Origin: a virus
Lineage: Duplodnaviria; Caudoviricetes
Length of the DNA stretch: 64,000 nt
Strand: one strand, 5' to 3'
Virus record (IMG/VR): IMGVR_UViG_3300047160_017115
Coordinates: 23,879 to 87,878 of that record
Below, piece by piece: positions 8,555 through 59,623 of the stretch (the stretch's first letter is position 1; each line of letters begins with the position of its first letter). The position numbers and the translations under genes were made by a program. The notes beneath the pieces are model-generated. The model was not told the origin of the DNA, did no database searches, and saw nothing but the letters and a program-made list of their open reading frames with translations.

Positions 8555-8588
8555 GTCATGCCGTCCCGGGGGCTTCATACCCGGAGAC
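8555..8588 (+). repeat. Dispersed 34-bp hairpin element, copy 1
   Basis: GTCATGCCGTCCCGGGGGCTTCATACCCGGAGAC. Confidence 0.9.
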
Positions 8589-8661
8589 TTGACCATCGAC
8601 GAGCTCATCGAACTTGAGCTTCTATGAGGGCCTGGTCTTCCTTTCAAACGTCTACGGGTCT

Positions 8662-8695
8662 GTCATGCCGCCCCGGGGGCTTCGTACCCGGAGAT
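8662..8695 (+). repeat. Dispersed 34-bp hairpin element, copy 2
   Basis: GTCATGCCGCCCCGGGGGCTTCGTACCCGGAGAT, 11 nt before ATG 8707. Confidence 0.9.
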
Positions 8696-8706
8696 GGAGC
8701 CTCACC

Positions 8707-9102
8707 ATGCCTAACAAGTGTTTCTACGACGACCAGACAGGTCGAACCTCGTACACCTCGGACGGGACCATCGGGGCCCCTCAGGCCAAGCCCCTTACCT
8801 TCCGGTACACGACCGAAGAGCTCAAGGCACACTGCGCCCGTCGTGTCACGGGCTACACCGAACGGTTGTCAGAGTTGGAGGATGCTGACAACGAGATTGG
8901 TGACGCCTCGAACTCTCAAGACGATGACCTCATGGCCGCGGCGCACAACGCGTTGGACGCTGCGTCGAAGGAAGATGAAGAGGGGGCCTTGTGGAACGCG
9001 CGGATCTTCTTCGCGACCATCGGCCAGCTCCTGTCCCGTACCGACCCCTCCGGCGTCCACCTCCTGACCCTCTCCGAGCTCATCGAACTTGAGCTCGTCT
9101 GA
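8707..9102 (+). CDS. Hypothetical protein
   Basis: ATG 8707 with GGAG RBS within track ORF 8614..9102; ends LTLSELIELELV. Confidence 0.65.
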   Translation: MPNKCFYDDQTGRTSYTSDGTIGAPQAKPLTFRYTTEELKAHCARRVTGYTERLSELEDADNEIGDASNSQDDDLMAAAHNALDAASKEDEEGALWNARIFFATIGQLLSRTDPSGVHLLTLSELIELELV

Positions 9103-9577
9103 CGACCTGGTCCTCCTCGTCGTTTTGCAGAACGCCTATGGCCGAGGCCCTCTAGTTGAGGGCTATAACCCCACGCGCTGGAAGCAGGCCTTCGAATCTA
9201 GTCGCACAGGGGTTCGGCTCTCCCGGGCCCTTCCTGGGGAGGGGTGGAAAGTAAGGTTCACGAACGCGAACCCTGGCCTCGGCCTGGGCCCGTCGTCGTA
9301 CCTCCCTGCCGACGTCCGGCACCTGCGGCGGGCCCTCCGTCGCACGACGCCGGACGTCGTGCTCGTCTGTGGGCGTTCTGCGTCAGTAACCGCCGACATC
9401 TGGGGCGGTCCCTTGGTGTCGATCCCACACCCCGCCTACCGTTGTCTGACGAATAACCTTCTGGACTGGTGCCGTGAGCACCTCGAGAAGTTCGCCGCAG
9501 ACGCGGCGTGCCGTCCGAGGTTTCGCTTCCAGCTCGTCCAAGAGTTGAACGGCGTCCACAAACACAACTTTGAGTGA
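9089..9577 (+). CDS. Hypothetical protein, possible uracil-DNA-glycosylase-superfamily fold
   Basis: SRTGVRL...NANP...PDVVLVCGRSA...LVSIPHPA; the 'vvlvG..A ... lPHPS'-type ending is typical of UDG-like folds. Confidence 0.35.
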   Translation: MSSSDDLVLLVVLQNAYGRGPLVEGYNPTRWKQAFESSRTGVRLSRALPGEGWKVRFTNANPGLGLGPSSYLPADVRHLRRALRRTTPDVVLVCGRSASVTADIWGGPLVSIPHPAYRCLTNNLLDWCREHLEKFAADAACRPRFRFQLVQELNGVHKHNFE

Positions 9578-9586
9578 ATTTCAAGA

Positions 9587-9817
9587 ATGCAGACCGGCAA
9601 AGGGCTGCCTCCTAAAGTGGCGGCCTACCTCACGGGCACCGACCACCGAAGACAGGTCGAGTGTTCCGACATTCGACGACAGAAGCGCCGTACTTCCAAG
9701 CAGCGACGTCGGCTCGACGTCGCTCAGGTGCGCAGCGACGAAAGCGCAAACTCGGACGTGAGACACGAACAGTACGTTCGGCGTCATTCGCTTCGGCGGG
9801 ATCGCCCCGTCGGCTGA
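9587..9817 (+). CDS. Small basic hypothetical protein
   Basis: Arg-rich 76-aa ORF; its TGA overlaps the next ATG. Confidence 0.45.
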   Translation: MQTGKGLPPKVAAYLTGTDHRRQVECSDIRRQKRRTSKQRRRLDVAQVRSDESANSDVRHEQYVRRHSLRRDRPVG

Positions 9818-10494
9818 TGCCACCGGTCTTGGGGGCTGAGCCACGCAAGCGCGCGGCCGCCCTCGCCCTCGACGCGGTCGCCGACGACCGCTCACGCGTG
9901 AGCCGGTACAAGTCGTACTGGAGGAAAATCACGCCCTCGGACCCAACGGAGCGCTTCCGCCGCTGGCTCTTCGCGTACGCGAGCGTCCAGACGGGCTGGA
10001 AGCGCAACATCGTGATCTACGAGGCCCTCGCGGCCCCCGGCCTGTCCTTCGACCCCCAGAACCTCGAGCAGGTCCTGACGGGTTGCGGGGCGGGCATGCA
10101 ACGGGTGCGCTCGCGGGGCCTTGCCCGTTTCCACGCCGACTACTGGTCGGCACCCGATGAGTTCCTCCCATCGGGTGGTGAAACCTTCGCCGCTTGCAGG
10201 GACCGGCTCGTCCCCAGGGTCTACGGCCTCGGGGTCGCCAAGGTCAGCTTCGCCCTCGAGATGGTGGCGCCTCTGGAGTGCGACGCCGTCTGCCTCGACA
10301 GACATCTCCTGCGGCTCTACGGGGTCGACCCCGAGGCCGCCACGCTCTCAGGCTACAAGACCGCGGAGGCCCACTGGAGGCGTGCGTGCGCGCGCCGCGG
10401 CCTGCCGTGTCCGATCGCCCGCCACATCGTCTGGGACCGCGTCCAGGGGCAGCGCTCGACGCGCTACTGGTCCCGCGTCTTCGAGACGAACTGA
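9817..10494 (+). CDS. HhH-GPD DNA glycosylase (Ogg/endonuclease III-like), paralog 1
   Basis: RDRLVPRVYGLGVAKVSFAL HhH motif followed by VCLDRHLLR; ATG 9817 coupled to upstream TGA. Confidence 0.75.
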   Translation: MPPVLGAEPRKRAAALALDAVADDRSRVSRYKSYWRKITPSDPTERFRRWLFAYASVQTGWKRNIVIYEALAAPGLSFDPQNLEQVLTGCGAGMQRVRSRGLARFHADYWSAPDEFLPSGGETFAACRDRLVPRVYGLGVAKVSFALEMVAPLECDAVCLDRHLLRLYGVDPEAATLSGYKTAEAHWRRACARRGLPCPIARHIVWDRVQGQRSTRYWSRVFETN

Positions 10495-10511
10495 GCAGAG
10501 AGGGGTGCGCG

Positions 10512-10781
10512 ATGAAACGCAGTACGTTCCTCCACGTCCTCGCCGGCGTCGTCCTCGGTACGTCCGCGGTCTTGTGGTCTGTCGTGCTGTTGGGGTACAC
10601 GGACCCCACCTCGTGCCCCCTCTGCGCCCGCGCCAGGGACGCCGAGCCGTCATGCCTTCCCGGGGGCTTAGTACCCGGAGACGAGGTCAACTGTTCGCCC
10701 CCTCTATCCGGGAGAAGAACGTTGAGCACTTTCGGAGATAGCACCACGACCGCGGTGTCTACAACCCTCAGATACGATTAG
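10512..10781 (+). CDS. Possible small membrane protein (contains the hairpin repeat, so doubtful)
   Basis: MKRSTFLHVLAGVVLGTSAVLWSVVLLG hydrophobic N-terminus, CPLC. Confidence 0.35.
   Translation: MKRSTFLHVLAGVVLGTSAVLWSVVLLGYTDPTSCPLCARARDAEPSCLPGGLVPGDEVNCSPPLSGRRTLSTFGDSTTTAVSTTLRYD
10649..10682 (+). repeat. Dispersed 34-bp hairpin element, copy 3
   Basis: GTCATGCCTTCCCGGGGGCTTAGTACCCGGAGAC. Confidence 0.9.
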
Positions 10782-10794
10782 AAGGAGAGCGCCT

Positions 10795-11172
10795 GTGTCG
10801 GATGGCGGTTTTTTCAAAACGCCTCTCGGCGAGCTATGTGACGCTGAACTCGGCAGGGCCCACGCCGCTCTTGAGGCGGAGGTGGAGAACCGGAGGAAGT
10901 TGAAGGTCGCGGCCGAGCTCGAACATCGGTACGAGTTCCTGAGCCTCCTGTTGAAGAAGACGCAGGACCTCCTCCAGTTCTTCCCGTACCACGACAACCC
11001 CGACGACAAGGACTGCCGGGACGACCAGGCGTTTAACACGTACAGTGGCGTTCCGAGATGTTCGCGGTGCGCGATCCTCTTCGTCCTGAAACACCAACCC
11101 GATCACTACAAGTTCCGATTCGTGGCGGAGATTTCGCCTCTGCACGAATACGACGAGAGAGACTACAGATGA
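10795..11172 (+). CDS. Hypothetical protein (CxxC)
   Basis: AAGGAG RBS; coiled N-terminus; PRCSRC. Confidence 0.6.
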   Translation: MSDGGFFKTPLGELCDAELGRAHAALEAEVENRRKLKVAAELEHRYEFLSLLLKKTQDLLQFFPYHDNPDDKDCRDDQAFNTYSGVPRCSRCAILFVLKHQPDHYKFRFVAEISPLHEYDERDYR

Positions 11173-12071
11173 GCACAACGACCGCGGCACCATCCATGGC
11201 CCTGCAGACGATCCCGTTCTACGGTGACGAGATCGTCGGCGGGGTCGTCGGGGGGGAGGTCTTCGTCCCCCTCAAGCGTCTCTGCGAGAACCTGGGAGTG
11301 ACCTACTCCCGCAACCTAAGTCGTCTGAGGTCTTCCGGTTGGGCAGTTGTGCGGGATTTGCGCACAACTGGGAAGGACGGTAAGACCTACTCCCTGTCCT
11401 GCATCGACACCGCCACACTCACCATGTGGCTGGCCCACATCAACTACAACGACTCGCGCTACTCGGACATCCGCGAGAAGCTCCTGCGCTACCAGAAGGA
11501 GGCCTGCGTCGTCCTCAAGGCGCACTTCCTCAAGGCCCTCGACCGCCCTGAGGACAGCCGTGCCCTCGCCGCCCAGGTGAACTCCCTGGTCGAGCTGGTC
11601 GAGGCCCAACAGGCCATGCTCGTGGCCAACGAGATAAGGTCGACGGCGCAGATCGAGAAACTCACTGAAGCCGTCCAGCACGTTGTCACCAAGGCGGTCA
11701 GTTTCGAGAAAGACATCAAGACCATGCGGCAGGCGGCCAAGGCCGCCCGCCGGTACATGGAATCGGCCCCGGGGTTCTCCGACAACACGTCGGACGCCGT
11801 GGCACGTCAGAACATCACGAACTGGATCGAGGCCTGGATCTCGCTGCACCACGGTGACGACGACCCGGCGTTCCACGCCGCGGCATGGGGTCGGTTCTAT
11901 CGCACATGTGGCAAGCGGTTCGGGATCGAATTCGAAACGCGTGAGAAGAACGCGAAGAAGGCCGGGCGTCGCTTTCACCCGATGGACGTCCTCGACGAGA
12001 AACGCCACACGGCATACGCCTTCATCATCGCGAGGGAGATCTTCCCTCTGGAGGCAAAGGGGGCGAAGTGA
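11169..12071 (+). CDS. Phage antirepressor, P22AR N-terminal domain
   Basis: IPFYGDEI...VFVPLKRLCENLGV...TTGKDGKTY...LTMWLAHIN...REKLLRYQKEA; coiled-coil middle; ATGA coupling. Confidence 0.85.
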   Translation: MSTTTAAPSMALQTIPFYGDEIVGGVVGGEVFVPLKRLCENLGVTYSRNLSRLRSSGWAVVRDLRTTGKDGKTYSLSCIDTATLTMWLAHINYNDSRYSDIREKLLRYQKEACVVLKAHFLKALDRPEDSRALAAQVNSLVELVEAQQAMLVANEIRSTAQIEKLTEAVQHVVTKAVSFEKDIKTMRQAAKAARRYMESAPGFSDNTSDAVARQNITNWIEAWISLHHGDDDPAFHAAAWGRFYRTCGKRFGIEFETREKNAKKAGRRFHPMDVLDEKRHTAYAFIIAREIFPLEAKGAK

Positions 12072-12658
12072 CCTACTACGTCAATGGTAGGGCCGTGAAG
12101 CCGCGGAAGGTGGACATCCACGACCCGTGGCCTGAGGAGCTCTGGCCGTACCCCGAGGGGTCGGCCGTTTACTACATCGCGACCGGATGCGCGGTCGGTA
12201 ACCCGCGAATCGGGAACGGTCGCGTGCACTGGTACAACCCAGCGCTCGTGGGTGATTTCGTCCTGTCAGCGGGTCACCCCATCCTTAACGTGCACGCCCC
12301 GAAGCCGTATCTCGGCCACGAGATCGTGAGCTTGGTGCACGTAGCCCCCTACAACCGCACGGGCAAGCACCTCATCGAGGCCCGTCTCGAGGCCTACAGG
12401 GCCGAGTGTCCTGATTTCAGTTCGCCGTGCTTCGAGCCCGCGTATCAGCTCGGCCGCGGGGTACCGATCTCGTCGCTCGACGACTACGACATCCGCAAGA
12501 TCCTACGGACCCGTGGCTTCGACATCACGGGCTCCCTGACGCGCAACCGGTTCGTGGCCTGGATGGCGCTCGAGTCCGGGGGAGAGGTCGCCGCCTACCT
12601 CACCAAATCGGGCCGCCTCACCACCGCCCTCGGCCGGCGCCCGTGCCTCTGCCCTTGA
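12068..12658 (+). CDS. Hypothetical protein
   Basis: 196-aa ORF with GTGA coupling. Confidence 0.6.
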   Translation: MTYYVNGRAVKPRKVDIHDPWPEELWPYPEGSAVYYIATGCAVGNPRIGNGRVHWYNPALVGDFVLSAGHPILNVHAPKPYLGHEIVSLVHVAPYNRTGKHLIEARLEAYRAECPDFSSPCFEPAYQLGRGVPISSLDDYDIRKILRTRGFDITGSLTRNRFVAWMALESGGEVAAYLTKSGRLTTALGRRPCLCP

Positions 12659-12721
12659 CACTGGGCTGGCGTGGGTTTGCGTCGCACCGTTACATAGAGC
12701 CTCCCATGGAAGGGGGGCCTC

Positions 12722-12898
12722 ATGACGACAAACCCGTCAACCCCGGGCGTGGTCAGGTGTCTGCGTTGTCAGCGTGACTTCGCGAGCCCTGACCGCGTCC
12801 GGATCCGAATCTGCAAGGAGTGCAAGCAGGGCCCAAAGGCCTACGGCTTGCGTGACGTTTCGATGCGCCAACTACGCGGAGCAATCCGTGGGGGATGA
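12722..12898 (+). CDS. Small zinc-finger protein (58 aa, below track cut-off)
   Basis: Manual translation MTTNPSTPGVVRCLRCQRDFASPDRVRIRICKECKQGPKAYGLRDVSMRQLRGAIRGG; GGAAGGGGGG RBS. Confidence 0.6.
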   Translation: MTTNPSTPGVVRCLRCQRDFASPDRVRIRICKECKQGPKAYGLRDVSMRQLRGAIRGG

Positions 12899-12901
12899 AC
12901 C

Positions 12902-13693
12902 GTGAACTTCGCCTTGGACCCGCAACTCCTGAACACGGCCACCAAGTACCCCTCGATCCCCACTTACCACAAGATGCTGGATCGAGGCCTTCTCGGCTCG
13001 GAGCGCGTCGCCTTCCCGGCCTCGGAGGAGGTCCTGGTCTACGAGAAGATCGACGGTTGTAACGGGCGGCTGACTGTCCTTCCCAACGGCGACTGGTTGC
13101 TAGGCTCCCGGGAGGAGTGGTTGACGTGTGACGGCGACCGCCTCGCGAACCCGGCATTGGGTATGGCCGAGGCTCTGAGCCCGTTCGTGAAGAAGTTGGC
13201 CTACGGGCTGTTCTCCTTCGTCCCGGAAGACACGGTCTATACCGCGTATTTTGAGCTGTACGGCGGTCGTGAAACCGGTAGCTGGCGCCACTACGCGACG
13301 GAGCCGACGCCTTCAATACGCTTCTTCGACGTCTCGTCGGTGTCGTGCGCCCAGATCACTGGGGATCGGGAGGCGCTGTCCCGTTGGCGCGATCAGGGGG
13401 GACAGACCTTCCTGAAGGTCGAAGACGCGGCGATGATCGCCATCTCGCTCGGGGTCGGTATCGCCCCTTTTCTGGGGCCCGTCGTGGGCCAACTTCCGAC
13501 CACCCACGCGGAAACTCTTGCTTTCCTCGTGCAGGTGGCTCCCCACACGCGCTGTTCGCTCGATGACACTTCGCGCGGAAAGGCTGAGGGCGTGATCCTC
13601 CGGACACGTTCGCGTAGCGTCATCGCCAAGTTGCGCTTCGAGGACTACGAGCGCACACTTCGTCGTGTCGCCAAGGAGAAGCCCGTTGCCTAG
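12902..13693 (+). CDS. RNA ligase (Rnl2-like nucleotidyltransferase)
   Basis: KYPSI; motif I YEKIDGCN; FELYG; IRFFDV; motif IV AEGVILR; motif V IAKLR. Confidence 0.8.
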   Translation: MNFALDPQLLNTATKYPSIPTYHKMLDRGLLGSERVAFPASEEVLVYEKIDGCNGRLTVLPNGDWLLGSREEWLTCDGDRLANPALGMAEALSPFVKKLAYGLFSFVPEDTVYTAYFELYGGRETGSWRHYATEPTPSIRFFDVSSVSCAQITGDREALSRWRDQGGQTFLKVEDAAMIAISLGVGIAPFLGPVVGQLPTTHAETLAFLVQVAPHTRCSLDDTSRGKAEGVILRTRSRSVIAKLRFEDYERTLRRVAKEKPVA

Positions 13694-14804
13694 TCCCGTT
13701 GCCGTCCTCGTCAGTGACGCCCACCTCCAGGACCGAGCCTGGGCCCACCGTCAGATCGAGGGGGACGCCTACTACTCGTTCGGGCAGGTCGTCGACTACG
13801 CGATCAACAATCATCTGGACATCATCGGGGCCGGCGACCTCATCGACCGCAGGGTGAACTCCTCCGGCCCCATCCACGCGATGCTCGCCGGCCTTCAGAA
13901 GCTCTGGAACAACAGCCGGCGGTTCTACCACATCCAGGGCCAGCACGAGGCTGACCCCTCGCCCTGGTTCAACCTGTCCCACGCTTCCATCCACGTCCAT
14001 AAGCAGTCGTTCCAGGTAGGCCACATCCGGGTCTACGGTTTGGACTTCACGCCCGCGGACTCCCTGAAGGCTGAACTCGACGCGATCCCCCCGGGCACGG
14101 ACCTCCTGGTGTGCCACCAGGTCTGGGATGAGTTCATGGGGGTGCACTGCGGGGCGCAGGCGTCCTTCGCCGACGTCCCCGTCGTCTCCACCGTGCTGAC
14201 GGGAGACCTTCACGAGAACAGGACGCTCAGCGCACGCGGCAAGGATGGACAGCGGCTCACCATTCACTCCCTGGGCTCGACCTGCATGCAGGACATCGCC
14301 GAGCCCCCCTCCAAGTTCTTCGGCGTCCTACGTGACGACCTGTCCGTCCGGCGTGTACGGCTACAGACTCGGCCGTTTATCGCCGCCGGCTTACTCCTGA
14401 CGGAGGCCGACGTCGAGGCGTTCCTGGGTCGTACTGAGGCCGAGTTGTCGCGTCTGGCGACGGCAGACACGTCCCTGCCGCCTGAGATTGCCAGGCCCCT
14501 TGTCAGGGTGGGGTACTCTCATAAGCTCGGGGACCTGTCGCGTCGGGTGCACAAGGTCTTCGGCGAGCGCGCCCACCTGTTTTTGAAGGAAGTCCCCCCT
14601 GAGCGCCCGAAAACGGTTTTGAGACCCGAGGGGGCTGAGGAGGCCGTCCGCACAGGGGCCATGACCCTGGAGGCGGCGCTCCCTTCGGTCCTGTCCGAGG
14701 ATGACGAGCCTGAACTGTACGCCCTCGCGCTGCGGGTGCTCGGGGCGCCCGACAAGGCCGCTGAGGTAAACGCCTGGGTCCGGGAGGCCCTCTCTGATGC
14801 CTAA
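13665..14804 (+). CDS. sbcD: SbcD/Mre11-like metallophosphoesterase nuclease
   Basis: SDAHL, GAGDLID, QGQHE, LVCHQ, TGDLHE, SLGST motifs; start uncertain (TTG 13686 possible). Confidence 0.8.
   Translation: MSPRRSPLPSPVAVLVSDAHLQDRAWAHRQIEGDAYYSFGQVVDYAINNHLDIIGAGDLIDRRVNSSGPIHAMLAGLQKLWNNSRRFYHIQGQHEADPSPWFNLSHASIHVHKQSFQVGHIRVYGLDFTPADSLKAELDAIPPGTDLLVCHQVWDEFMGVHCGAQASFADVPVVSTVLTGDLHENRTLSARGKDGQRLTIHSLGSTCMQDIAEPPSKFFGVLRDDLSVRRVRLQTRPFIAAGLLLTEADVEAFLGRTEAELSRLATADTSLPPEIARPLVRVGYSHKLGDLSRRVHKVFGERAHLFLKEVPPERPKTVLRPEGAEEAVRTGAMTLEAALPSVLSEDDEPELYALALRVLGAPDKAAEVNAWVREALSDA
14610..14620. promoter_or_regulatory. AAAAC-S-GTTT(T/C) near-palindrome
   Basis: AAAACGGTTTT within the 3' part of sbcD, about 180 nt before the methyltransferase start. 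Confidence 0.45.
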
Positions 14805-15459
14805 CCTGTACAAGGTCGTTGACCTTGGTACGAAGCGGGCCGGTGCGCTGGACGAGTTCCTGCGGGCCGGCTCGATGTACTTCGGGGACGAGGTCGCGTC
14901 GATCAAGCCAGGCGATTGTCTGGGGTACGACTACAACGGGAAGTACGACCGCGAGGTACGCGCCAAGGGATACAGGTTCCAGGGCCAGGACCTCACGGAC
15001 CGTCAGGTCCTCGACGCGCTCCCCGCTGCGGACTACTACCTCGCCTGGGACTTCCTCGAGCACCTCCCGTCCGTCGAGCACTCCGACAGGATCCTGGAGG
15101 TCATGCTCCAGCGCGCCCGTGTCGGGGTCTGGCTACGGATGCCGAGCTTCGAGCAGGACATGGAGACGGGGGAGGGGAGGCTCCGCGCGCACGGCCTCAG
15201 GTTTGCCTGGACCGACTGGCACGGGCACAAGAGCCACTACACCCTCGCGATGGCGCGCGACGTCATCACGGCCTCGGGGTTTGGCGCCCTCAAGGTCAAG
15301 GGCAACCGTCTGATCGAGACGACGGGCGACCGTTGTGTCGTGCCGGTCTCGGCGCCGACCGACACCGTCGAGTATTCCGCGGCCCTCGGGGCGCGGCCGA
15401 AGGTGGCTTTCAGCCCCCCGCTTGTGGGTCAGTGGGAGGTTATCGTCAGCCGGAAGTGA
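14797..15459 (+). CDS. Class I SAM-dependent methyltransferase-like protein
   Basis: VVDLGTKRAG motif-I-like; DYYLAWDFLEHLP...GVWLRMP typical of glycan-associated methyltransferases. Confidence 0.6.
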   Translation: MPNLYKVVDLGTKRAGALDEFLRAGSMYFGDEVASIKPGDCLGYDYNGKYDREVRAKGYRFQGQDLTDRQVLDALPAADYYLAWDFLEHLPSVEHSDRILEVMLQRARVGVWLRMPSFEQDMETGEGRLRAHGLRFAWTDWHGHKSHYTLAMARDVITASGFGALKVKGNRLIETTGDRCVVPVSAPTDTVEYSAALGARPKVAFSPPLVGQWEVIVSRK

Positions 15460-15515
15460 CCACGTAGCCAGAGCTACACGCGGCGAGCGCTAAGCAACCT
15501 TGGAGATGAGAGACC

Positions 15516-16151
15516 ATGATCGTCTACAAGCTGACTGATGAGAGGGTGATGACCTTCGGCCGTTGTCAGTGGGACCTCAATGTGAAGAAGACCACGGACG
15601 GCCGTGGTGAGCTCTGCGGCGCGGGTTGGCTCCACGCCTACCCCGACCCCTTGACGGCCGTGTTCATGAACCGGATCCATGCGAACTTTGGGCACCCTCG
15701 TCTGTTCGAGGCCGAGGCCGGCGGACTCCTCAAGTACGACAAGAAGATGAAACTCGGGGCGACGGAGTTGACCCTGCTCCGTGAGCTCGAGCTGCCTGTC
15801 ATAACCCCTGTCGTACGGGTGCGCGTCGCGCTCAAGGCGGTGCTCGAGTCGGTGGGAGACGTTGAGCTACCTGTCTGGAAGTGGTGGGCTCAACACTGGC
15901 TCTCGGGCGCCGCCCGTCACGAGGTGCCGTTGGACGTTGCTCATATCAGCTCGCTCTCCTTCGCGTTGTCGCTCGACCAAATGGCTGCGGCAAACGACGC
16001 GGTGTATGCTGCGTGGGAATTGGCGCATTTTGACGCGAACGGTTCCAGCTTATACACGGCGCATGCGGCGTATGGGCTAGACGCCGACCTCCCGCGGTTG
16101 ATCCCCGCCGCCGTCGCGGCCGAGGCGGCTCTCAACGTACAGAAGTCTTGA
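15516..16151 (+). CDS. Phage paralog family member 1 (YK-x-T...W...C...WLHAY domain; DUF7666-like from memory)
   Basis: MIVYKLTD...QWDL...LCGAGWLHAYPDPLTA...RLFEAEAGG...KLGATELTLLRELELP. Confidence 0.75.
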   Translation: MIVYKLTDERVMTFGRCQWDLNVKKTTDGRGELCGAGWLHAYPDPLTAVFMNRIHANFGHPRLFEAEAGGLLKYDKKMKLGATELTLLRELELPVITPVVRVRVALKAVLESVGDVELPVWKWWAQHWLSGAARHEVPLDVAHISSLSFALSLDQMAAANDAVYAAWELAHFDANGSSLYTAHAAYGLDADLPRLIPAAVAAEAALNVQKS

Positions 16152-16179
16152 GGCAAAGACACCTGGAAGGGGCTCCGAA

Positions 16180-16797
16180 GTGCTCGTCTACAAGTTCACC
16201 GACCAGAACATGCGGACCTACGACGGCTTCGCGTGGAGTCTTGGTAGGGCCCGCAAGGCGTCCGGTAACGTTAAGTATCTCTGCACAGATTCCTGGCTCC
16301 ATGCGTATCCGGATAAGCTGACGGCCTCGTTCATGTGGGCGGCGCACGTGCACGACGATTATACCCGGTTCTTCGAAGCCGAGGCCGGCGGTGAGATACT
16401 CCGCGATAAACAAGGCCTCAAACTGGGCTGTACCAGGTTGACCCTTATTCGTGAGCTCAATCTCCCCGCGATTAGCCTGAACGTGCGCCGTCGTGTGGCG
16501 ATCAGGTACGCCAAAGCAACGACAGGGCTAGGTAAGGGCGCGTCGTGGTTCGACTGGGCTGAGAAGTGGCTGGCGGGCGAGCGTCCTGTCTTCACACCTT
16601 ACGTGGCCTCATGCAGTCTGGCCGAGGACTACGCCTGGCAATCCGTGAGTAAAAGGTCTCCTTACTTCTCCAAGGAGGCGGCGGCGCTGGCGGTGAATGC
16701 GGCGACCAGTTTGTCGAAATGTTCGGCCTCGCTGCCTGAGAGGATTCGCGAGGCCGTCAAGGAGGAGGCCGAGTTGAGGCGTGCCGGTAGGGCCTAG
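16180..16797 (+). CDS. Phage paralog family member 2
   Basis: MLVYKFTDQNMRTYDGFAW...LCTDSWLHAYPDKLTA; 47 nt (16292..16338) identical to 16962..17008. Confidence 0.75.
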   Translation: MLVYKFTDQNMRTYDGFAWSLGRARKASGNVKYLCTDSWLHAYPDKLTASFMWAAHVHDDYTRFFEAEAGGEILRDKQGLKLGCTRLTLIRELNLPAISLNVRRRVAIRYAKATTGLGKGASWFDWAEKWLAGERPVFTPYVASCSLAEDYAWQSVSKRSPYFSKEAAALAVNAATSLSKCSASLPERIREAVKEEAELRRAGRA

Positions 16798-16849
16798 ACG
16801 GCCGACGAGTAACCACAATCACTTTACAACTTTGGAAGGGGGCTCGATC

Positions 16850-17491
16850 GTGCTCGTCTACAAGTTCACGGACGTCAAGATGCGGACCCGAGGGGGCTTC
16901 CAGTGGAAGCTCGGCAAGGCGCGGAGGGCACCCGGGAAGTCGGAGTGGCTCTGCAATGAGGCCTGGCTCCATGCGTATCCGGATAAGCTGACGGCCTCGT
17001 TCATGTGGCCGGCACACGTGAGCGATTTGTACGTTAGGTTCTTTGAGGCCGAGGCCGATGGTGAGATTCTTCAGGACACTGACGGGAACAAGCTTGGTTG
17101 TACGCGGCTGACCCTTCTGCGTGAGCTCAAGCCTCCTGCGATCAGTCTGGACGTGCGCCGTCGTTTGGCGATCAAGTGCGCCAAAACCTCAACGTCCTCC
17201 TTCTTGAGTTGGAACTCCAATTGGCAACGTTGGGCTGACGGTTGGCTGGCGGGCGAGCGCTCAATAGAGACGGCGTTGAATTATCAGCAGCCTCCCTATA
17301 TGGGGGCCACGTACCACGCCTCGGAAGCGGTGATACGAAGGTCGCCGTACGCCTGCAAGGCAGCCGCGGCTTTGGCGGTGGACAGGAGTTACGCTTCTGA
17401 CTCGTTCGAACTGTCTGAGATGATTCGCGAGGCCGTCAAGGAGGAGACCAATCTGAGGCGTGCCGGCCTCATCAGGACGGGCGCCAAGTGA
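16850..17491 (+). CDS. Phage paralog family member 3
   Basis: GTG 16850 (same GAAGGGG RBS context as member 2); VLVYKFTDVKMRTRGGFQW...LCNEAWLHAYPDKLTA. Confidence 0.75.
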   Translation: MLVYKFTDVKMRTRGGFQWKLGKARRAPGKSEWLCNEAWLHAYPDKLTASFMWPAHVSDLYVRFFEAEADGEILQDTDGNKLGCTRLTLLRELKPPAISLDVRRRLAIKCAKTSTSSFLSWNSNWQRWADGWLAGERSIETALNYQQPPYMGATYHASEAVIRRSPYACKAAAALAVDRSYASDSFELSEMIREAVKEETNLRRAGLIRTGAK

Positions 17492-17498
17492 CCGTGTC

Positions 17499-17537
17499 GT
17501 CATGCCAAGCCTTCCCGGGGGCTTTGTACCCGGAGAC
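17499..17537 (+). repeat. Dispersed hairpin element, copy 4 (5-nt insertion)
   Basis: GTCATGCCAAGCCTTCCCGGGGGCTTTGTACCCGGAGAC, immediately upstream of sbcC. Confidence 0.85.
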
Positions 17538-17585
17538 AAAGCGCACGATGGCGTCTAAACACGCTCACCCCTTGCGTCATAAAAC

Positions 17586-25662: not shown

Positions 25663-26751
25663 GTGACCGCCCCCTTGAACCCGACCCTGTACGCCCTGCT
25701 CAAGAAGCGCTTCGGGGAGGTCAAGATCGGCAACCCGGGAGCGGGGATGGCCGTCGCCGAGGTGCACGACCGGCTCCGCGGGGTCACCAGGCGACGCGTC
25801 ACGAGCAAGGGGGAGTACTACGCCGTCTGTTGTCCCTACTGCAACGACACGAGGTTCCGCCTCAACATCGGGCACTGCTGGGGACGACAAGACCCCGAGA
25901 CGGGCTGGCGCTGGATGAGCCTGGCCGTCTGCTGGAACGACACGCGATGCCTGGACAATCCCCGCCTCCGCGACGACCTCCTTGAGGACATCACGGAACT
26001 CGACGGCCAGCTCGACCGGGCGCCCGTGCGCAAGGCCGACCCGGCCCCGGAGCGGCCCGACGTCATCGACTGGCCGGGCGATGTGGTCCGGCTCAACGAG
26101 CTGGACCCCGACCACCCGGCCCGGCGCTATATGGAGAAGGACCGCGGCTTCGACGTCGACATCCTCTCACGCGTCTACCACGTCTCCTGGTGCGTGGAGA
26201 GTAAGAACTATCACGCCCGCGAGCGCATCATCATCCCCGTCTACCAGTGGGGCAAACTGCGCCACTGGCAGGCGCGCTACCCGGGCGAACTGCCCTGGCA
26301 CGACAAGGCCCTCAAGAGGTCCCTGCCGCTCAAGTACGGCGGGCCCACAGGTGGCAACCCGTCACACCTGCTCTACAACCTCGACCAGGCGTCACGGTAC
26401 GAGACCGTGATCATCTGCGAGGGCGTCACTGACGTCTGGAGGGTCGGCCCCATGGCCGTGAGCGTGTTCGGCAACAGCGTCAAGCGCCTCCAGCAGAAGG
26501 CGCTCGTCACGGCGTTCGGCGAGCGCTCCGTCATCCTCCTGCTCGACCCCGACAAGGCGGGCGACGCCGGGGCCCGTTCCGCCGAGGATCTCGCCGCGGA
26601 ATTTCCACAAAACCGTTTTTGTCGGGTCCGCCTCCCCGAGGGGAGAGACCCGGCCTCCTTCGACCGCCCGACGCTGCGCCGGCTCGTCACCGAGCTCGCC
26701 GCCGCGCAGGGGGTCGACGTTTCTTACAGTAAGGCTGTGACTGCGAAATGA
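25663..26751 (+). CDS. DNA primase (Zn finger plus TOPRIM)
   Basis: VCCPYCNDTRFRL zinc finger; RIIIPV; LLYNLD; IICEGVTD; LLLDPDKAG; DPAS. Confidence 0.85.
   Translation: MTAPLNPTLYALLKKRFGEVKIGNPGAGMAVAEVHDRLRGVTRRRVTSKGEYYAVCCPYCNDTRFRLNIGHCWGRQDPETGWRWMSLAVCWNDTRCLDNPRLRDDLLEDITELDGQLDRAPVRKADPAPERPDVIDWPGDVVRLNELDPDHPARRYMEKDRGFDVDILSRVYHVSWCVESKNYHARERIIIPVYQWGKLRHWQARYPGELPWHDKALKRSLPLKYGGPTGGNPSHLLYNLDQASRYETVIICEGVTDVWRVGPMAVSVFGNSVKRLQQKALVTAFGERSVILLLDPDKAGDAGARSAEDLAAEFPQNRFCRVRLPEGRDPASFDRPTLRRLVTELAAAQGVDVSYSKAVTAK
26609..26619. promoter_or_regulatory. AAAAC-S-GTTT(T/C) near-palindrome
   Basis: AAAACCGTTTT about 130 nt before the polymerase start. Confidence 0.5.
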
Positions 26752-38685: not shown

Positions 38686-38702
38686 ACACTCCCGTGGTGA
38701 TA

Positions 38703-38736
38703 GTCATGCCCTCCCGGGGGCTTCGTATCCGGAGAC
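38703..38736 (+). repeat. Dispersed 34-bp hairpin element, copy 5
   Basis: GTCATGCCCTCCCGGGGGCTTCGTATCCGGAGAC (G-T in stem). Confidence 0.9.
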
Positions 38737-38750: not shown

Positions 38751-38784
38751 CTTACGCCCTCCCGGGGGCTTCGTATCCGGAGAT
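38751..38784 (+). repeat. Dispersed 34-bp hairpin element, copy 6
   Basis: CTTACGCCCTCCCGGGGGCTTCGTATCCGGAGAT, 10 nt before thyX ATG. Confidence 0.9.
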
Positions 38785-38794
38785 GAGGTAATTG

Positions 38795-45084: not shown

Positions 45085-45118
45085 GTCACGCCTTACCGGA
45101 GGCTTCGTCTCCGGCGAC
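45085..45118 (+). repeat. Dispersed 34-bp hairpin element, copy 7 (diverged, compensatory stem change)
   Basis: GTCACGCCTTACCGGAGGCTTCGTCTCCGGCGAC: stem is CCGGA/TCCGG versus CCGGG/CCCGG in other copies. Confidence 0.75.
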
Positions 45119-52067: not shown

Positions 52068-52068
52068 C

Positions 52069-52146: not shown

Positions 52147-52962
52147 ATGTCACACAAGTACAAGATCGGGTTCGTGTGCCCCACCTATTCCCAGTTCCCC
52201 TACGCGGAACGGGCGATCTCGACCTTCCTCGAGTACACGCCCGGCGGGCTCGCCATCGTCGTCGACGACGCCAGCCCGGACTGGGACGACAAGGACTGGC
52301 AGTCATTCCTCTATATTGAGCCGGTGGGCGTCCTCCGTGCCGTGGTCAATCGCTTCGAGCAGAACGGTGGCCTCACGCGCTCCTGGAACGCCGGCCTGAG
52401 CATTGCCCGCGTCTACGATTGTGAGTACGCGATCGCCGGCAACTCCGACGTCATCTTCGGGGCGCGTTGGTACGAGGGTTTGCTCGATGCTCTGAATGCC
52501 GGTTACCACCTCGTGGGGCCGGTCTCGAACGCCCCGGGGATCACGGCCAAGGGTTACGCCGAGGTCTGGCGGTACGACAGCACCTATGCGACGACGGACG
52601 ACCAGGAGTACATCGACAACCTCTCGTGCTCTCTTCGGGAGCGCTACCCGACCTCGATCGTCGAGGCGCCGGTCAACGGCTTCTTCCAGATGGCCCGCGT
52701 CGCCGACTGGTGGTCGGGGGCTTACGACGCCAAGGCGGGCCAGGTCTACAAGCCGAGCAACGAGTTCACGTCCGAGGGGCGCAGGAACCCGACCCCGCTC
52801 ATGACGCTCAACGAGGACGAGCTCCAGGGCCGGTGGGCCAAGCTCGGCCGCAAGACCGCTGTCGTGCCGTCGAGTTTCATCTTCCACTACCGGGCGGTGA
52901 CCAGGGGCCCGAAGTACCTCAGGGGTCGCTGGTTTAGGCCGGCGCCCGGGAGCAAGCCGTGA
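52147..52962 (+). CDS. Glycosyltransferase family 2
   Basis: IGFVCPTY; IVVDDAS; NGGLTRSWNAGL; AGNSDV; EDE; FIFHY. Confidence 0.85.
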   Translation: MSHKYKIGFVCPTYSQFPYAERAISTFLEYTPGGLAIVVDDASPDWDDKDWQSFLYIEPVGVLRAVVNRFEQNGGLTRSWNAGLSIARVYDCEYAIAGNSDVIFGARWYEGLLDALNAGYHLVGPVSNAPGITAKGYAEVWRYDSTYATTDDQEYIDNLSCSLRERYPTSIVEAPVNGFFQMARVADWWSGAYDAKAGQVYKPSNEFTSEGRRNPTPLMTLNEDELQGRWAKLGRKTAVVPSSFIFHYRAVTRGPKYLRGRWFRPAPGSKP

Positions 52963-54728: not shown

Positions 54729-54762
54729 ACCACGCCGTCCCGGGGGCTTCGTACCCGGAGAC
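54729..54762 (+). repeat. Dispersed 34-bp hairpin element, copy 8
   Basis: ACCACGCCGTCCCGGGGGCTTCGTACCCGGAGAC. Confidence 0.9.
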
Positions 54763-54782
54763 TGCACAAGTGGGGCGCTTAC

Positions 54783-54793
54783 AAAACCGTTTT
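54783..54793. promoter_or_regulatory. AAAAC-S-GTTT(T/C) near-palindrome
   Basis: AAAACCGTTTT, 14 nt before GTG 54807. Confidence 0.65.
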
Positions 54794-54806
54794 TGAGGGC
54801 TAGCGC

Positions 54807-55142
54807 GTGATTCCTCGCCAACAGTCTCACATTCCCGATATCTTCACCCACGTCGACAACGTCTACACCGAGGAGTGCCGCAAGTGCGGGGTCACACCCA
54901 ACCGTGCCGGCCTCCTCAAGTTCGCCCACGCGTATCTCGACCGCCACCGCCCCGTCGAGATGTTCGCCGCCGACGCCAACTTCGGCGCCGTCCTCAACAA
55001 CAACTTCCGAGTCCTCCTCTGCCCGCAGGCGGACACGCACGCCGGCGACGTCAACACCGGCGGCTCCGTCGCCGTTACCTCGGGTGGAGGTCCCGTGTAC
55101 GACCACAACTACCGGGACCCGAACGCGATTCCCGTGACGTGA
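54807..55142 (+). CDS. Hypothetical protein
   Basis: 111-aa ORF. Confidence 0.55.
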   Translation: MIPRQQSHIPDIFTHVDNVYTEECRKCGVTPNRAGLLKFAHAYLDRHRPVEMFAADANFGAVLNNNFRVLLCPQADTHAGDVNTGGSVAVTSGGGPVYDHNYRDPNAIPVT

Positions 55143-56775: not shown

Positions 56776-57720
56776 GTGGACGCTACGCCTGAGACCTTAT
56801 GCTCCATTGACCCGGAGCACCGCGTCCTCCTTTTGAGGACGAACGACGCCAACATGAGGAGCTTCGGCGGTTTCACCTGGCCTGAGTCTGGCTGGTGTGT
56901 GGCGCCGGATTGGGAGCCCAAGCCTAAGTGCGGCCACGGCCTCCACGGCCTCCTCTGGGGCGCAGGGAATTCTGTGCTTCTGGACTGGGACAAGACCGCC
57001 AAGTGGCTCGTCGTGGAAGCGGACGCCCGTGAGCTCGTAGATCTTGACGGCAAGGTCAAGGTGCCCAGGGGCCGCGTCGTCCATGTTGGCGACCAGGTGT
57101 CGGCTACCCAGTACCTCTACAACAACGACGGCCACTGCTCTTCGATCGTGGGCCTCTCGTTAACCGTGGGTCACGGCGTCAGGGTCGTGGGAGGCGCTCA
57201 ATCCGTGCTCACCGGAGGTCACGACGTCGTGCTCACCGGTGGTTTCGGGTCCCTGCTCGTCGGCGGTCATAGATCCGTGCTCACCGCCGGTAGTGATTCC
57301 GTGCTCAGCGGCGGCGAAGCCTCCAGACTCACCGGCGGAGAGTTTTGCCAGCTCACCGGTGGCTACGGCGCCGAGCTCAGCGCCGGCAGCAACGCCCGCC
57401 TCCTCGGCGGCGATGTCTCCGTGCTCACCGCCGGCAACTATTCCGTGCTCACCGGTGGGGTGTGCTCTGTGCTCACGGCGGGTCGTGACTCCAAACTCGT
57501 CGGCGGTCATAGCTCCAAGCTCACCGCCGGTAGGGATTCCGTGCTCATAGGCGATCGCCAGTCAACTTTCGCAGGTGGCGAGGGGTCCGTGTTCTCCTGT
57601 CGATGGCTCGACGATTCACGGTTACGGCTCGTTACGGCCTACGTGGGGGAGGATGGGATCGAGCCTGATCGCCCCTATCATTTTGCGGGTGGTGCATTCC
57701 ACCTCGTTGATCGGTCATGA
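56776..57720 (+). CDS. Miniature ice-nucleation-protein (InaZ-family) homologue
   Basis: N-domain LLRT..ANM...G.TWP.SG...W...GL.GLLWGAG.S..L...A.W.V.E...VK.PR..VVHVGD..SA; about 17 octapeptides (SVLTAG/GG type); C-domain SVF..RW.D..R.R.V.A..GEDGIEPDRPY. Matches recalled InaZ N- and C-terminal sequences. Confidence 0.8.
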   Translation: MDATPETLCSIDPEHRVLLLRTNDANMRSFGGFTWPESGWCVAPDWEPKPKCGHGLHGLLWGAGNSVLLDWDKTAKWLVVEADARELVDLDGKVKVPRGRVVHVGDQVSATQYLYNNDGHCSSIVGLSLTVGHGVRVVGGAQSVLTGGHDVVLTGGFGSLLVGGHRSVLTAGSDSVLSGGEASRLTGGEFCQLTGGYGAELSAGSNARLLGGDVSVLTAGNYSVLTGGVCSVLTAGRDSKLVGGHSSKLTAGRDSVLIGDRQSTFAGGEGSVFSCRWLDDSRLRLVTAYVGEDGIEPDRPYHFAGGAFHLVDRS

Positions 57721-57737
57721 TGCCGAAGGAGTCTCAA

Positions 57738-59174
57738 ATGGCTTACGACCTGGTGGGTCGTGTCGAGTCGCTCGGCACGCCCAAGGTTCTCGTGATCGGG
57801 GACATCATCCTCGATCGGTACATCTGGGGCGACGTCGAGCGCGTCAGCCCCGAGGCCCCCGTGCCCGTGTTCGTCCCCTACAAGACGGAGGACCGTCTCG
57901 GCGGGGCGGGGGCCGTTGCCGCCATGCTCGCGACGCTCGGCGCCGAAGTGACTCTCCAGGGCCTCGCCGGTATCGATGAGACCGCTTTCGTCGTTGGGAC
58001 CCTTGCCAAAGACCTTGGAATCAGTCGTCGCGTGTACCGCGAAGAGGGTCGTCCGACCACGGTCAAGGAGCGCTACGTGGGGCGCTCTCATGGGAAGCAC
58101 GTGCAGCAGCTCTTGCGTGTCGATCGCGAGTCATGCAAGGGGCCCGAAGCATTCACTCAAAGGTTTCTCAAAGAGACCCTCACGTCCGCTTGTTCGCATA
58201 AGTGGGACGCCATCCTGGTCTCCGACTACGGCAAGGGCGTCTGTACCCAAGACACTGTGCGCGCGGCCGTCGAGTACGGACGTGAGCGTGCCATCCCTGT
58301 AGTCGTGGACCCTTCGGCTAGCAAGGCGGTAGGTGCCTACTACGGGGCGACGGCCCTCACGCCTAACCGTCGTGAGGCCGCGCAGCTCTGTTGTGATGGC
58401 ATCCCTGTCGAGCGGCTATGGCAATACTCGTCCGTGGGGTGTGTCTTCACCACGCTCGACAAGGACGGGATCTCCGTTAGCCACAAAGGGGGCTACTCGG
58501 TCCTGCCTGCTCGACCCCGGGAGGTCTACGATGTCACGGGGGCGGGCGACATGGTCCTCGCTGTCATCGGCCTCTGTCTCGCGTCGGGCGCGAGCTACGA
58601 GGAGGCCGCGGCCCTCGCCAACGTGGCGGGCGGCCTCTCCGTCGAACGGTTCGGCGCGGCCCTGCTCACCAGGCAGGAGCTCGTCGACGACATCCGTGCC
58701 GCGAGCCCTTCCCAGGACCCGAAGTTGTTCAGCCTCTCGTCTCTCGTGGGGGAGGTCGCTCATCGCCGCGCTCTTGGCCAGACGATCGTCATGACCAACG
58801 GGTGCTTTGATTGTCTGCACCCCGGTCACCTGCACCTTCTCACATACGCCAAAGACGAGGATACATATCTCATCGTCGCCGTGAACTCCGACGACAGCGT
58901 GCGGAGACTCAAGGGGGAGAGACGGCCCATCCAGCCGCTGGCTGAGAGGGTGAAGGCCCTCACGGGGTTGCGCTGCGTCGACGCCGTCATCGTCTTCAAG
59001 GAAGACACGCCGTTGGCGTTGATCCAGGAGTTCAGACCCGACGTCCTGGTGAAGGGCGACGACTACACCATGGACCAGGTGGTCGGTCGTGACAGCGTCC
59101 TGGACGCTGGAGGTAAAGTGGTCCTCGTGCCTCGGCTCCCGGGTTACTGCACCAGTCGGCTCCTGCGAACCTGA
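57738..59174 (+). CDS. hldE: Bifunctional heptose-7-phosphate kinase / heptose-1-phosphate adenylyltransferase
   Basis: IGDIILDRY.WG.VERVSPEAPVPV; SDYGKG; TPNRRE; YDVTGAGD; TNGCFDCLHPGH; NSDDSVRRLKG..RP; VKGDDY. AAGGAG RBS. Confidence 0.95.
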   Translation: MAYDLVGRVESLGTPKVLVIGDIILDRYIWGDVERVSPEAPVPVFVPYKTEDRLGGAGAVAAMLATLGAEVTLQGLAGIDETAFVVGTLAKDLGISRRVYREEGRPTTVKERYVGRSHGKHVQQLLRVDRESCKGPEAFTQRFLKETLTSACSHKWDAILVSDYGKGVCTQDTVRAAVEYGRERAIPVVVDPSASKAVGAYYGATALTPNRREAAQLCCDGIPVERLWQYSSVGCVFTTLDKDGISVSHKGGYSVLPARPREVYDVTGAGDMVLAVIGLCLASGASYEEAAALANVAGGLSVERFGAALLTRQELVDDIRAASPSQDPKLFSLSSLVGEVAHRRALGQTIVMTNGCFDCLHPGHLHLLTYAKDEDTYLIVAVNSDDSVRRLKGERRPIQPLAERVKALTGLRCVDAVIVFKEDTPLALIQEFRPDVLVKGDDYTMDQVVGRDSVLDAGGKVVLVPRLPGYCTSRLLRT

Positions 59175-59451
59175 TCAGGTTTTATTAGGCTTAGAAAAAT
59201 CCTCGGAGCGATTTTCTCTCGTGAAAGCGAACTCCGATCGGTCCGGTTTCACGGATCCCTCCGGTGCGCCGGCCGGACCGCCCCCGGCGTTCGGCGGCGT
59301 CGCTCGTCGACCGGTTCTTTATGGCACGTCGTCGTTCTGGGGGGACGAAGACCTGGTGTCGTACGTCGTCCACTTCCCGCTGGCGGGGTATTACGTACGA
59401 GAGGACGGCAGGATCCTCCACGACCTCCCCGCGGGGGCCGAGCTCATCGGC

Positions 59452-59492
59452 CCCGTAAACGAAACCGCCCGGCCTTCTGAGGGGCCGGGCGG
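59452..59492 (-). terminator. Intrinsic terminator downstream of the tRNA
   Basis: Perfect 10-bp stem CCGCCCGGCC (59465-74)/GGCCGGGCGG (59483-92), followed on the minus strand by TTTCGTTT. Confidence 0.7.
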
Positions 59493-59508
59493 CGTCGTTT
59501 CCCGAAAG

Positions 59509-59578
59509 TAGCGGCGGGGGGAATCGAACCCCCGAGACCAGGGTTATGAGCCCTAGTGAGGTACCAACCTTCACCGCG
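59509..59578 (-). tRNA. tRNA-fMet(CAT), short D-arm, no encoded CCA
   Basis: CGCGGTG...TAGGG-CTCATAA-CCCTG...GGGGG-TTCGATT-CCCCC-CGCCGCT-A; C1:U72 mismatch and three G:C anticodon-stem pairs are initiator hallmarks. Confidence 0.85.
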
Positions 59579-59589
59579 TTTGTATCATC

Positions 59590-59623
59590 GTCATGCCGCC
59601 CCGGGGGCTTCATACCCGGAGAA
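59590..59623 (+). repeat. Dispersed 34-bp hairpin element, copy 9
   Basis: GTCATGCCGCCCCGGGGGCTTCATACCCGGAGAA, 11 nt from the tRNA 5' end. Confidence 0.9.

Follow-up and report, generated by a model that had tools for sequence, protein, structure and literature searches.

Little is understood of the cis-acting signals used by phages with a multisubunit RNA polymerase of their own; for phiKZ and AR9 a small number of promoters has been mapped, and we know of no defined termination or processing signals in phages of this kind. In phage T7, the host RNase III cuts long, irregular intergenic duplexes, some 20 bp or more in length, and the upstream mRNA keeps a 3′ hairpin that protects it. The stoperators of Cluster A mycobacteriophages (L5 gp71 type) affect elongating polymerase where genes meet (PMC9283540), and in the PeSLs of T4-type phages, cassettes that join a terminator to a promoter, the stem-loop is a terminator or attenuator for upstream transcription (PMC2839356, PMC4122927). 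Here we analyze a 34-base element dispersed in a single orientation along a 64,000-nt stretch of phage DNA (the window), which corresponds to bases 23879–87878 of the 87,878-bp virus record IMGVR_UViG_3300047160_017115; coordinates are those of the window unless given as record coordinates. An earlier note on this DNA had described nine copies as a hairpin bound or cut by a phage protein, an anti-CRISPR-like solitary repeat or a recombination site for gene cassettes. Its broad notion of a strand-specific element that acts in cis and is read by a factor from the phage still fits our results best, and we propose tentatively, with a probability of about 0.35, that the element marks the 3′ ends of transcription units as a factor-dependent signal for termination, pausing, processing or stabilization.

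Results

Copies of the element

The record holds 15 copies of the element, nine in the window and six upstream of it (record 3510, 5340, 5405, 5470, 22205 and 22260), all on the + strand. A consensus search allowing up to three mismatches returned seven copies against none in 100 shuffles, and a 21-nt core, CCGGRGGCTTNRTAYCCGGAG, recovered all nine window copies, all on the + strand, where 0.05 were expected. A covariance model was built on the 15 copies and run without filters on both strands of the whole record. It gave exactly 15 hits of 46–60 bits, all on the + strand; the next best hit scored 12 bits. Because the score drops from 46 to 12 bits, there are neither decayed nor minus-strand copies in the record, and the single orientation first noticed in the window holds throughout. 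Scanning relatives with such a model, as the earlier note had suggested, yielded no copy in the four related contigs described below.

A crude codon-usage gene caller delineated 108 genes, 105 of them on the + strand, which cover 91.5% of the record and leave 8.5% non-coding. The 15 copies form 10 loci, every one of them between called genes, which bears out the gene-boundary placement reported before, and the copies are co-oriented with the 105 + strand genes. By our own arithmetic, and if the loci are independent, such all-intergenic placement has a probability of about 2e-11.

The first window locus is a head-to-tail pair with a 107-nt period, in which copy 8555–8588 (58.1 bits) begins 7 nt past the stop of a PIG-L-like gene (7826–8548) and copy 8662–8695 (59.9 bits) ends 11 nt ahead of the ATG at 8707. 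A single copy at 10649–10682 (57.5 bits) has the loop variant CTTAG and lies within a small open reading frame (ORF; 10512–10781). Another, at 17504–17537 (54.8 bits), lies 13 nt past the stop of a DUF7666 gene (16850–17491) and upstream of a Rad50/SbcC-like gene (17601–19745). Its 5′ box is duplicated, with a second GTCATGCC at 17499, 5 nt upstream (a 5-nt duplication, ATGCC/AAGCC); it is this box that had been taken for the start of the element, which aligns at 17504, while the other eight of the nine starts given before were correct. Copies 38703–38736 (55.3 bits) and 38751–38784 (52.2 bits), both with a G-U stem variant, form a second head-to-tail pair with a 48-nt period; a 12-bp GC hairpin at about 38655–38686 precedes the first, and the second ends 10 nt ahead of the thyX ATG at 38795. 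The most divergent copy, 45085–45118 (48.8 bits), carries a compensatory A-U pair and an extra G-C pair in its stem and separates two conserved genes that stand just 2–6 nt apart in the relatives. The last two copies are single. One, at 54729–54762 (55.0 bits), lies 44 nt past the stop at 54685 and is followed 20 nt downstream by a AAAACCGTTTT motif (54783) and then by a GTG at 54807; the other, at 59590–59623 (53.5 bits), lies 82 nt ahead of the gene at 59705. A minus-strand tRNA-like sequence (59508–59578) sits 12 nt from copy 59590, inside a + strand gene block; ARAGORN reads it as tRNA-Met (CAT), but its Rfam score of 30.8 bits is below threshold and its acceptor stem has just 4 bp.

At four or five of the 10 loci the first copy lies 7–15 nt past the upstream stop (7, 8, 13 or 15 nt in four of them), at two (record 3463 and window 38640) it comes directly after a long, GC-rich, terminator-like hairpin located past the stop, at one it stands where the coding signal of the small ORF ends, and at the remaining loci it lies 44–81 nt past the stop. 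At three multi-copy loci the last copy ends 10–12 nt ahead of a start codon, and each of these genes has its own Shine–Dalgarno sequence after the element. The gene at 8707 has GGAG at 8696–8699 and thyX has GAGG at 38785–38788, which contradicts the proposal that the GGAG of the element's 3′ arm serves them in this role. Elsewhere the downstream start is 45–245 nt from the element. The pair at record 22205/22260 occupies the interval between the stop of a + strand gene (record 22190) and that of the convergent minus-strand terminase gene (record 22314), with no + strand gene downstream.

The small ORF that contains copy 10649 (89 codons, + strand) has a coding-like third-position G+C content (GC3) of 0.91 before the element and 0.64 after it. 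That its frame continues through the element for 44 more codons while GC3 falls suggests that the element took over the original 3′ end of this gene. The TAG of the loop variant does not end the ORF, with which it is out of frame and which stays open across the element. The ORF opens, by eye, with a predicted membrane helix.

Every tandem runs head-to-tail, with start-to-start spacings of 48, 55, 65, 65 and 107 nt, and six loci hold a single copy. The three-copy locus (record 5340/5405/5470) has an exact 65-nt period and two spacers of about 31 nt. Neighbouring copies in a tandem resemble each other more than they do any other copy (record 22205 and 22260 differ at 2 of 34 positions, and 38751 is nearest to 38703), which indicates that tandem copies arose by local duplication.

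Sequence and possible structure

Conservation is limited to 33–34 nt, TCAYGCC-NY-C-CCGGR-GGCTTCGTA-YCCGG-AGAC. These can be drawn as a 5-bp stem (CCGGR/YCCGG) with a 9-nt loop, GGCUUCGUA (or 7 nt with a closing G.A pair, at whose position copy 45085 has G-C), preceded by a conserved single-stranded 5′ box, UCAYGCC. Stem variation agrees with the first description, with G-U in 38703 and 38751 and A-U in 45085, and A-U occurs also in record 22205 and 22260; GGCTT is unchanged in 15 of 15 copies. Only the loop-adjacent pair varies, yet it is paired in every copy (G-C in 10, A-U in three, G-U in two). A rival hairpin, CUUCG/CGGAG, is 93% paired, yet it shows zero covariation, and a longer helix through the NN positions or the GTC...GAC ends likewise shows none. 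We consider the stem-loop plausible but unproven, and the invariant loop and 5′ box would argue for sequence-specific recognition by a protein.

A coding role was rejected with the ATG kept in only 9 of 15 copies, as was restriction-site avoidance (68 CCCGGG sites against 60 expected). The loop complement, TACGAAGCC, has no further occurrence on the + strand, and the word YGTC starts seven of the 15 copies, 8 nt from the stem. No Rfam family reached its gathering score in the window or in the left 24 kb. The element does not have the form of an intrinsic terminator: its stem is followed by AGAC and then by unconserved sequence without a T run. Intrinsic-terminator signals, like sigma-70 signals, were not above shuffles, and the terminator scan did not list the elements.

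Relatives and distribution

The record has a G+C content of 65% and a completeness of 39% according to CheckV, and both its ends fall within coding sequence. It has no close relatives among GenBank phages, megablast of 4 kb against 50,697 phage records giving no match. Four IMG/VR contigs are relatives that share a common gene order and a DNA polymerase (PolA) 42–53% identical to that of the record. Two of them are complete genomes, of 225 and 235 kb, and carry genes for RNA polymerase β and β′ subunits (L172 and L181 at about 68.8 and 73.3 kb of G002; L173, L182 and L183 at about 116.7–120.4 kb of G003, where β and β′ are fused into a single 1,933-aa ORF). The β- and β′-like proteins match cellular Pfam models strongly (E 1e-55 and 1e-21), whereas much greater divergence is expected of phiKZ-type polymerases. 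Sigma-70 region 2 was not detected in the complete relatives, and PF00940 (T7-like polymerase) matched nothing in the record and these two genomes, nor did it match the positive control. Because the two complete relatives measure 225 and 235 kb and encode β and β′, the window is a fragment of a jumbo phage from a lineage with its own multisubunit RNA polymerase.

None of the four relatives contains the element, whether sought by a pattern search with 3 mismatches or by the covariance model, nor does IMG/VR beyond this record. Across 185,579 prokaryote genomes, one per species, a 27-nt pattern had no match, and a looser 19-nt pattern gave, among the matches listed for these genomes, single chance matches per locus and no arrays. 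Fifteen JGI metagenome matches to the 21-nt core were dismissed as unrelated, being without the 5′ box and mostly a single stretch found in several contigs. The syntenic junctions ahead of three genes, the homologues of the Rad50, thyX and 45165 genes, measure −11 to +6 nt in G001 and G002 and 109–160 nt in this phage, where they hold the element. Since the same junctions overlap or span at most 6 nt in the relatives, without the element, it was gained in this lineage, at junctions that are operon-internal elsewhere. Eight of the 10 loci touch a lineage-specific gene, but lineage-specific genes are not enriched at the element (junctions SS 4, SC 4 and CC 2 against a background of 41, 37 and 29; Fisher p = 1). 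We conclude that the copies form a real, new and lineage-specific family of co-oriented intergenic repeats.

A second motif in the promoter-like position

A near-palindrome, RAAACCGKTTT (core AAAACCGTTTT), occurs about 20 times in the record, on both strands; window sites are 5697, 7804, 14610, 22331, 26609, 34001, 40239, 41374, 47476, 52069, 54783, 60002 and 63114. Its + strand form, often ACAAAACCGTTTTTGAG, lies 2–9 nt past a stop or 18–30 nt ahead of a start. The counterparts in the relatives are CTCAAAAGCGGTTTTGAGA in G001, directly ahead of the ATG, and CTAAAAGCCAGTTTTGAG in G002, where a motif of the same kind also reads CTAAAAGCCAGTTTTGAGAAC. In these relatives the motif stands immediately 5′ of a Shine–Dalgarno sequence or start and, in one G002 gap, behind a terminator-like hairpin. 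In the gaps of our record that hold both motifs (54729–54807 and record 3510–3788), the hairpin element comes first. Judged from its sequence and position, the AAAACCGTTTT-type motif is likely a promoter or operator of the lineage, and a better candidate for this than the hairpin element. Positions 1–20000 of the window, which include four element copies, contain no sigma-70-like site, and the element has no −35/−10-like hexamers.

The Cas7-like protein

The binder or cutter first proposed for the hairpin, by analogy with Cas6-type RAMPs, was a solo RAMP protein, the 173-aa product of 20651–21172 (+ strand), whose gene overlaps that of an SF2 helicase (21139–22653) and lies between the Rad50-like and DnaB genes. 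This protein has no Pfam, PHROG or NCBIfam match. Its AF2 model, which drew on 21 homologues, reached a pLDDT of 82 and a pTM of 0.74. Foldseek aligned it with Cas7-type RAMPs (E 3e-5, TM 0.46–0.60), and VIA gave Z 10.6 over 150–162 residues to Csm3, type IV Csf2 and type VII Cas7; a single Cas6 figured among the Foldseek matches listed, at rank 50 (TM 0.37). The RAMP assignment itself is thereby confirmed, but the modelled fold is of the Cas7-like backbone type, not the hairpin-cutting Cas6 type. Homologues with 31–41% identity occupy the same syntenic position in four of four relatives, where the adjoining helicase is likewise kept, and occur in 17 metagenome protein clusters. The relatives have neither the element nor a mini-array-like repeat (the mini-array scan returned coding repeats only), and no CRISPR array or other cas gene was seen. 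Since four relatives keep the Cas7-like protein but not the element, the two do not co-occur and, in a record 39% complete, there is no evidence for a link between them.

Other features of the record

Three minus-strand genes lie wholly or partly upstream of the window: a tyrosine recombinase (record 6806–8020, window −17072 to −15858, hence outside it; PF00589, E 4e-26), a conserved 391-aa gene (record 16251–17426) and the large terminase (record 22314–24248, with its stop at 22314). A 478-nt gap beside the recombinase contains, by eye, a tRNA-like 3′ half, although neither ARAGORN nor Rfam called a tRNA there. Together with a protein carrying a P22-antirepressor N-terminal domain (11196–12071, + strand), the recombinase is a temperate-type gene in an apparent jumbo phage with its own RNA polymerase. 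Other annotated proteins are rIIA, a Rad50/SbcC-like ATPase, an SF2 helicase, DnaB, a Toprim primase, a UvsX-like recombinase, ThyX, an HldE-like enzyme and a fusion of uracil-DNA glycosylase (UDG) and PolA. The last is a 1,074-aa family A DNA polymerase (26748–29972, + strand) with an N-terminal UDG-superfamily domain and a 3′–5′ exonuclease domain, and is the protein by which the relatives were compared. Sugar-related accessory genes encode a PIG-L-family deacetylase (7826–8548), a family 2 glycosyltransferase (52147–52962) and an HldE-like fusion of PfkB kinase and cytidylyltransferase (57717–59174).

The closest homologue of ThyX among 5.8 billion protein clusters is 60% identical, and the contig that bears it has no element copy. 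That contig also carries a gene (L177, 8106–9101) with N_methyl and SBP_bac_10 (DUF1559) domains, a combination that we take to be typical of Planctomycetota, which hints at this phylum as host of the phage group.

Discussion

A proposed signal at the 3′ ends of transcription units

We favour a model in which the sense strand of the element would present a short stem-loop, CCGGR/YCCGG with its GGCUUCGUA loop and UCAYGCC box, and would be recognized by a sequence-specific phage factor. At the 3′ end of the upstream gene it would act as a factor-dependent terminator or pause site, or else as a site of RNA processing and 3′-end stabilization, and so would uncouple gene blocks that form one tightly packed operon in related phages. 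With all 15 copies on the + strand, all intergenic and none decayed or inverted, the element has the properties of a constrained directional signal. We favour the 3′ end as its place of action because copies sit just past stops, between convergent genes and upstream of the promoter-like motif. As a promoter, the pair at record 22205/22260 would have no downstream + strand gene to serve, and the order in which the element precedes the AAAACCGTTTT-type motif, at 54729 and record 3510, is that of a terminator followed by a promoter. As the relatives encode β and β′, a polymerase-specific termination or processing signal without a U-tract is conceivable. That the sole variable stem pair stays paired in 15 of 15 copies would be in keeping with action at the RNA level.

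Several observations weigh against this interpretation. The covariation announced by the earlier note includes a compensatory pair but is confined to that one pair, and its score was reached by 22 of 500 column shuffles; as few as one or two mutations might account for it, and a single clade could unite the T-bearing copies. The stem has C.A mismatches in record 3510 and 5470, and since these would read G.U on the minus strand, its transitions show no strand preference. Folding energies are no better than those of dinucleotide shuffles (z −2.1 to +0.6), and the stem is just 5 bp long with a 9-nt loop. Two loci already have a strong hairpin just upstream, where a second terminator looks redundant, and the three loci that end 10–12 nt ahead of a start would also fit a promoter or a 5′-UTR (untranslated region) element. 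Because relatives with the same polymerase do without it, the element also stands outside the core transcription machinery of the lineage.

Alternative explanations

High conservation over about 34 bp, strict co-orientation with almost every gene and restriction to intergenic DNA are together the classic signature of a phage-polymerase promoter. The element could thus be the promoter of one temporal class, used by the phage multisubunit polymerase or a specificity factor, with transcription starting in or just past the GGAGAC end and tandem copies acting as tandem promoters. The β and β′ subunits of the relatives, the failure to find sigma-70-type promoters in window 1–20000, the two copies right behind terminator-like hairpins, the three that end 10–12 nt before a start and ahead of the gene's own Shine–Dalgarno sequence, and the presence of the replication module and thyX among the downstream genes are all in keeping with such a role. 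It nevertheless seems doubtful to us: the record 22205/22260 pair would direct transcription into the convergent terminase gene from its 3′ end, many copies lie close to the upstream stop and not the downstream start, the relatives that share the polymerase are without the element while the AAAACCGTTTT-type motif is conserved in the expected promoter place, and a duplex site has no reason to keep an inverted repeat paired. A similar difficulty meets the idea of a double-stranded docking site for a phage regulator, an orientation-dependent roadblock or operator analogous to the stoperators, for which a covarying pair that is A-U three times and never A-C is not expected. Its asymmetric, dispersed and intergenic sites, co-oriented with transcription, would be like those of stoperators (PMC9283540), and the temperate-type genes of the record, the unremarkable hairpin thermodynamics, the stem mismatches that are plain transitions without strand bias and the 5-N9-5 inverted repeat, of a kind used by dimeric binders, would all suit it. 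However, 34 bp is far longer than a 13-bp stoperator, and lysogeny is unproven for a phage of about 225 kb that encodes its own RNA polymerase. Pfam and PHROG scans of the element-flanking proteins gave no nucleic-acid-binding candidate, and neither a repressor candidate nor a stoperator-domain homologue is among them, although no search was aimed at a repressor and the record is 39% complete. We therefore hold a docking site of this kind to be unlikely.

The history of the element invites another explanation, in which a short mobile repeat, PeSL-, REP- or attC-like, spreads by local duplication and homologous or site-specific recombination and shuffles genes, any regulation being secondary. 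The gain in this lineage, at junctions of −11 to +6 nt in G001 and G002 against 109–160 nt here, the mutual resemblance of tandem neighbours and the lineage-specific gene touched by eight of 10 loci all agree with this, and PeSLs are conserved stem-loop cassettes that flank ORFans in T4-type phages (PMC2839356, PMC4122927). Lineage-specific genes are not enriched, however, and the recombinase falls far short of integron-integrase cut-offs, both of which count against the suggested cassette recombination site; there is also no sigma-70 promoter component, and a Y1/RAYT transposase is absent. REPs, moreover, are mostly inverted dimers (PMC3733652) as against the head-to-tail tandems seen here, and decayed copies, target-site duplications visible by eye and copies in other genomes are all lacking. 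A recombination module is in our view quite unlikely, although the element may serve as a substrate for homologous recombination. Least probable of all is a CRISPR-like repeat, whether as a solitary-repeat RNA anti-CRISPR that mimics a host repeat or as the guide-RNA repeat or handle of the phage's Cas7-like RAMP and SF2 helicase. The repeat-like length of about 34 nt, the locus with three copies at an exact 65-nt period and two spacers of about 31 nt, the genuine Cas7-fold protein beside a helicase (20651–22653) and the existence of Racrs, solitary repeat units in phage genomes (PMC10651486), speak for it. Yet no array or other copy was found in the 185,579 species genomes, IMG/VR or JGI metagenomes (where loosening the pattern gave only single chance matches among those listed), and in place of a near-constant spacer length, tandem copies outside that locus are spaced by 48, 55 and 107 nt, while six loci have a single copy. 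The spacers of the three-copy locus had no match in 50,697 phage records. Hairpin CRISPR repeats have 8–11-nt handles, and just 4 conserved nt follow the stem here. The Cas7-like gene and helicase are kept in four relatives without the element or a mini-array, and the fold is not Cas6-like. Any CRISPR-like or RAMP-linked role is accordingly very improbable, and we give as slim a chance to a CRISPR-independent system in which the repeats would be RNA handles and a factor, possibly with the RAMP and SF2 helicase at 20651–22653, would bind or cut the hairpins, freeing gene-sized mRNAs and, at the tandem loci, small spacer RNAs of about 48–107 nt as possible guides.

If it were a plain promoter or operator, the element would be ordinary. 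With its 34 nt, 15 copies and one orientation it is a clean, high-information candidate signal. Its gain in one lineage, at junctions internal to operons in the relatives, is a natural experiment in the redrawing of transcription units by a giant phage, and as a compact bait it could lead to the protein that reads it.

Comparison with known systems

The N4 virion-RNA-polymerase hairpin promoter has a 5–7-bp stem and a 3-nt loop, and the loop of our element is 9 nt (7 if G.A closes) in 15 of 15 copies. Integron attC sites, found at the 3′ ends of cassettes downstream of attI, measure 57–141 bp against the 34 nt of the element; the recombinase of the record scores 32.7 bits against the TIGR02249 cut-off of 265, and the 14-kb stretch beside it contains no element copy. 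Like the RNase III sites of T7, the copies are co-oriented intergenic hairpins that would punctuate polycistronic phage transcripts, but with a stem of 5 bp a separate sequence-specific factor would be needed. CRISPR repeats and RNA anti-CRISPR units (PMC10651486) resemble the element in length, in the hairpin of their 3′ half and in their occurrence in phages; the element, however, consists of 15 mostly single or irregularly spaced gene-boundary copies, with no matching host repeat found and no Cas6. With the GTAG-/CGTC-tagged REP elements it shares a GC-rich palindromic intergenic sequence of 20–40 nt, often at gene 3′ ends, whereas REPs are mostly inverted dimers whose tag adjoins the stem and which in some genomes have a RAYT (PMC3733652). 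In our element YGTC lies 8 nt from the stem, and the Y1 (RAYT) transposase PF01797 was not found in the record, 39% complete, by a search whose control matched in 7 genomes.

The PeSLs of T4-type phages are closer, being repeated, conserved intergenic stem-loops (GGGG...CCCC type) in large lytic-type phages and possible recombination substrates, but they include a strong sigma-70 early promoter and prefer ORFans in hyperplastic regions, neither of which the element shows (PMC2839356, PMC4122927). The stoperators of Cluster A mycobacteriophages differ in being 13 bp long, without an inverted repeat, bound by a monomeric HTH (helix-turn-helix) repressor and located in temperate phages that rely on host polymerase (PMC9283540), whereas the element has 34 nt, a 5-bp inverted repeat and a conserved loop and belongs to a lineage with its own RNA polymerase. 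What the two have in common is a set of many asymmetric, conserved intergenic sites whose orientation is tied to transcription: all 15 copies of the element are intergenic and lie on the + strand, as do 105 of the 108 genes of the record.

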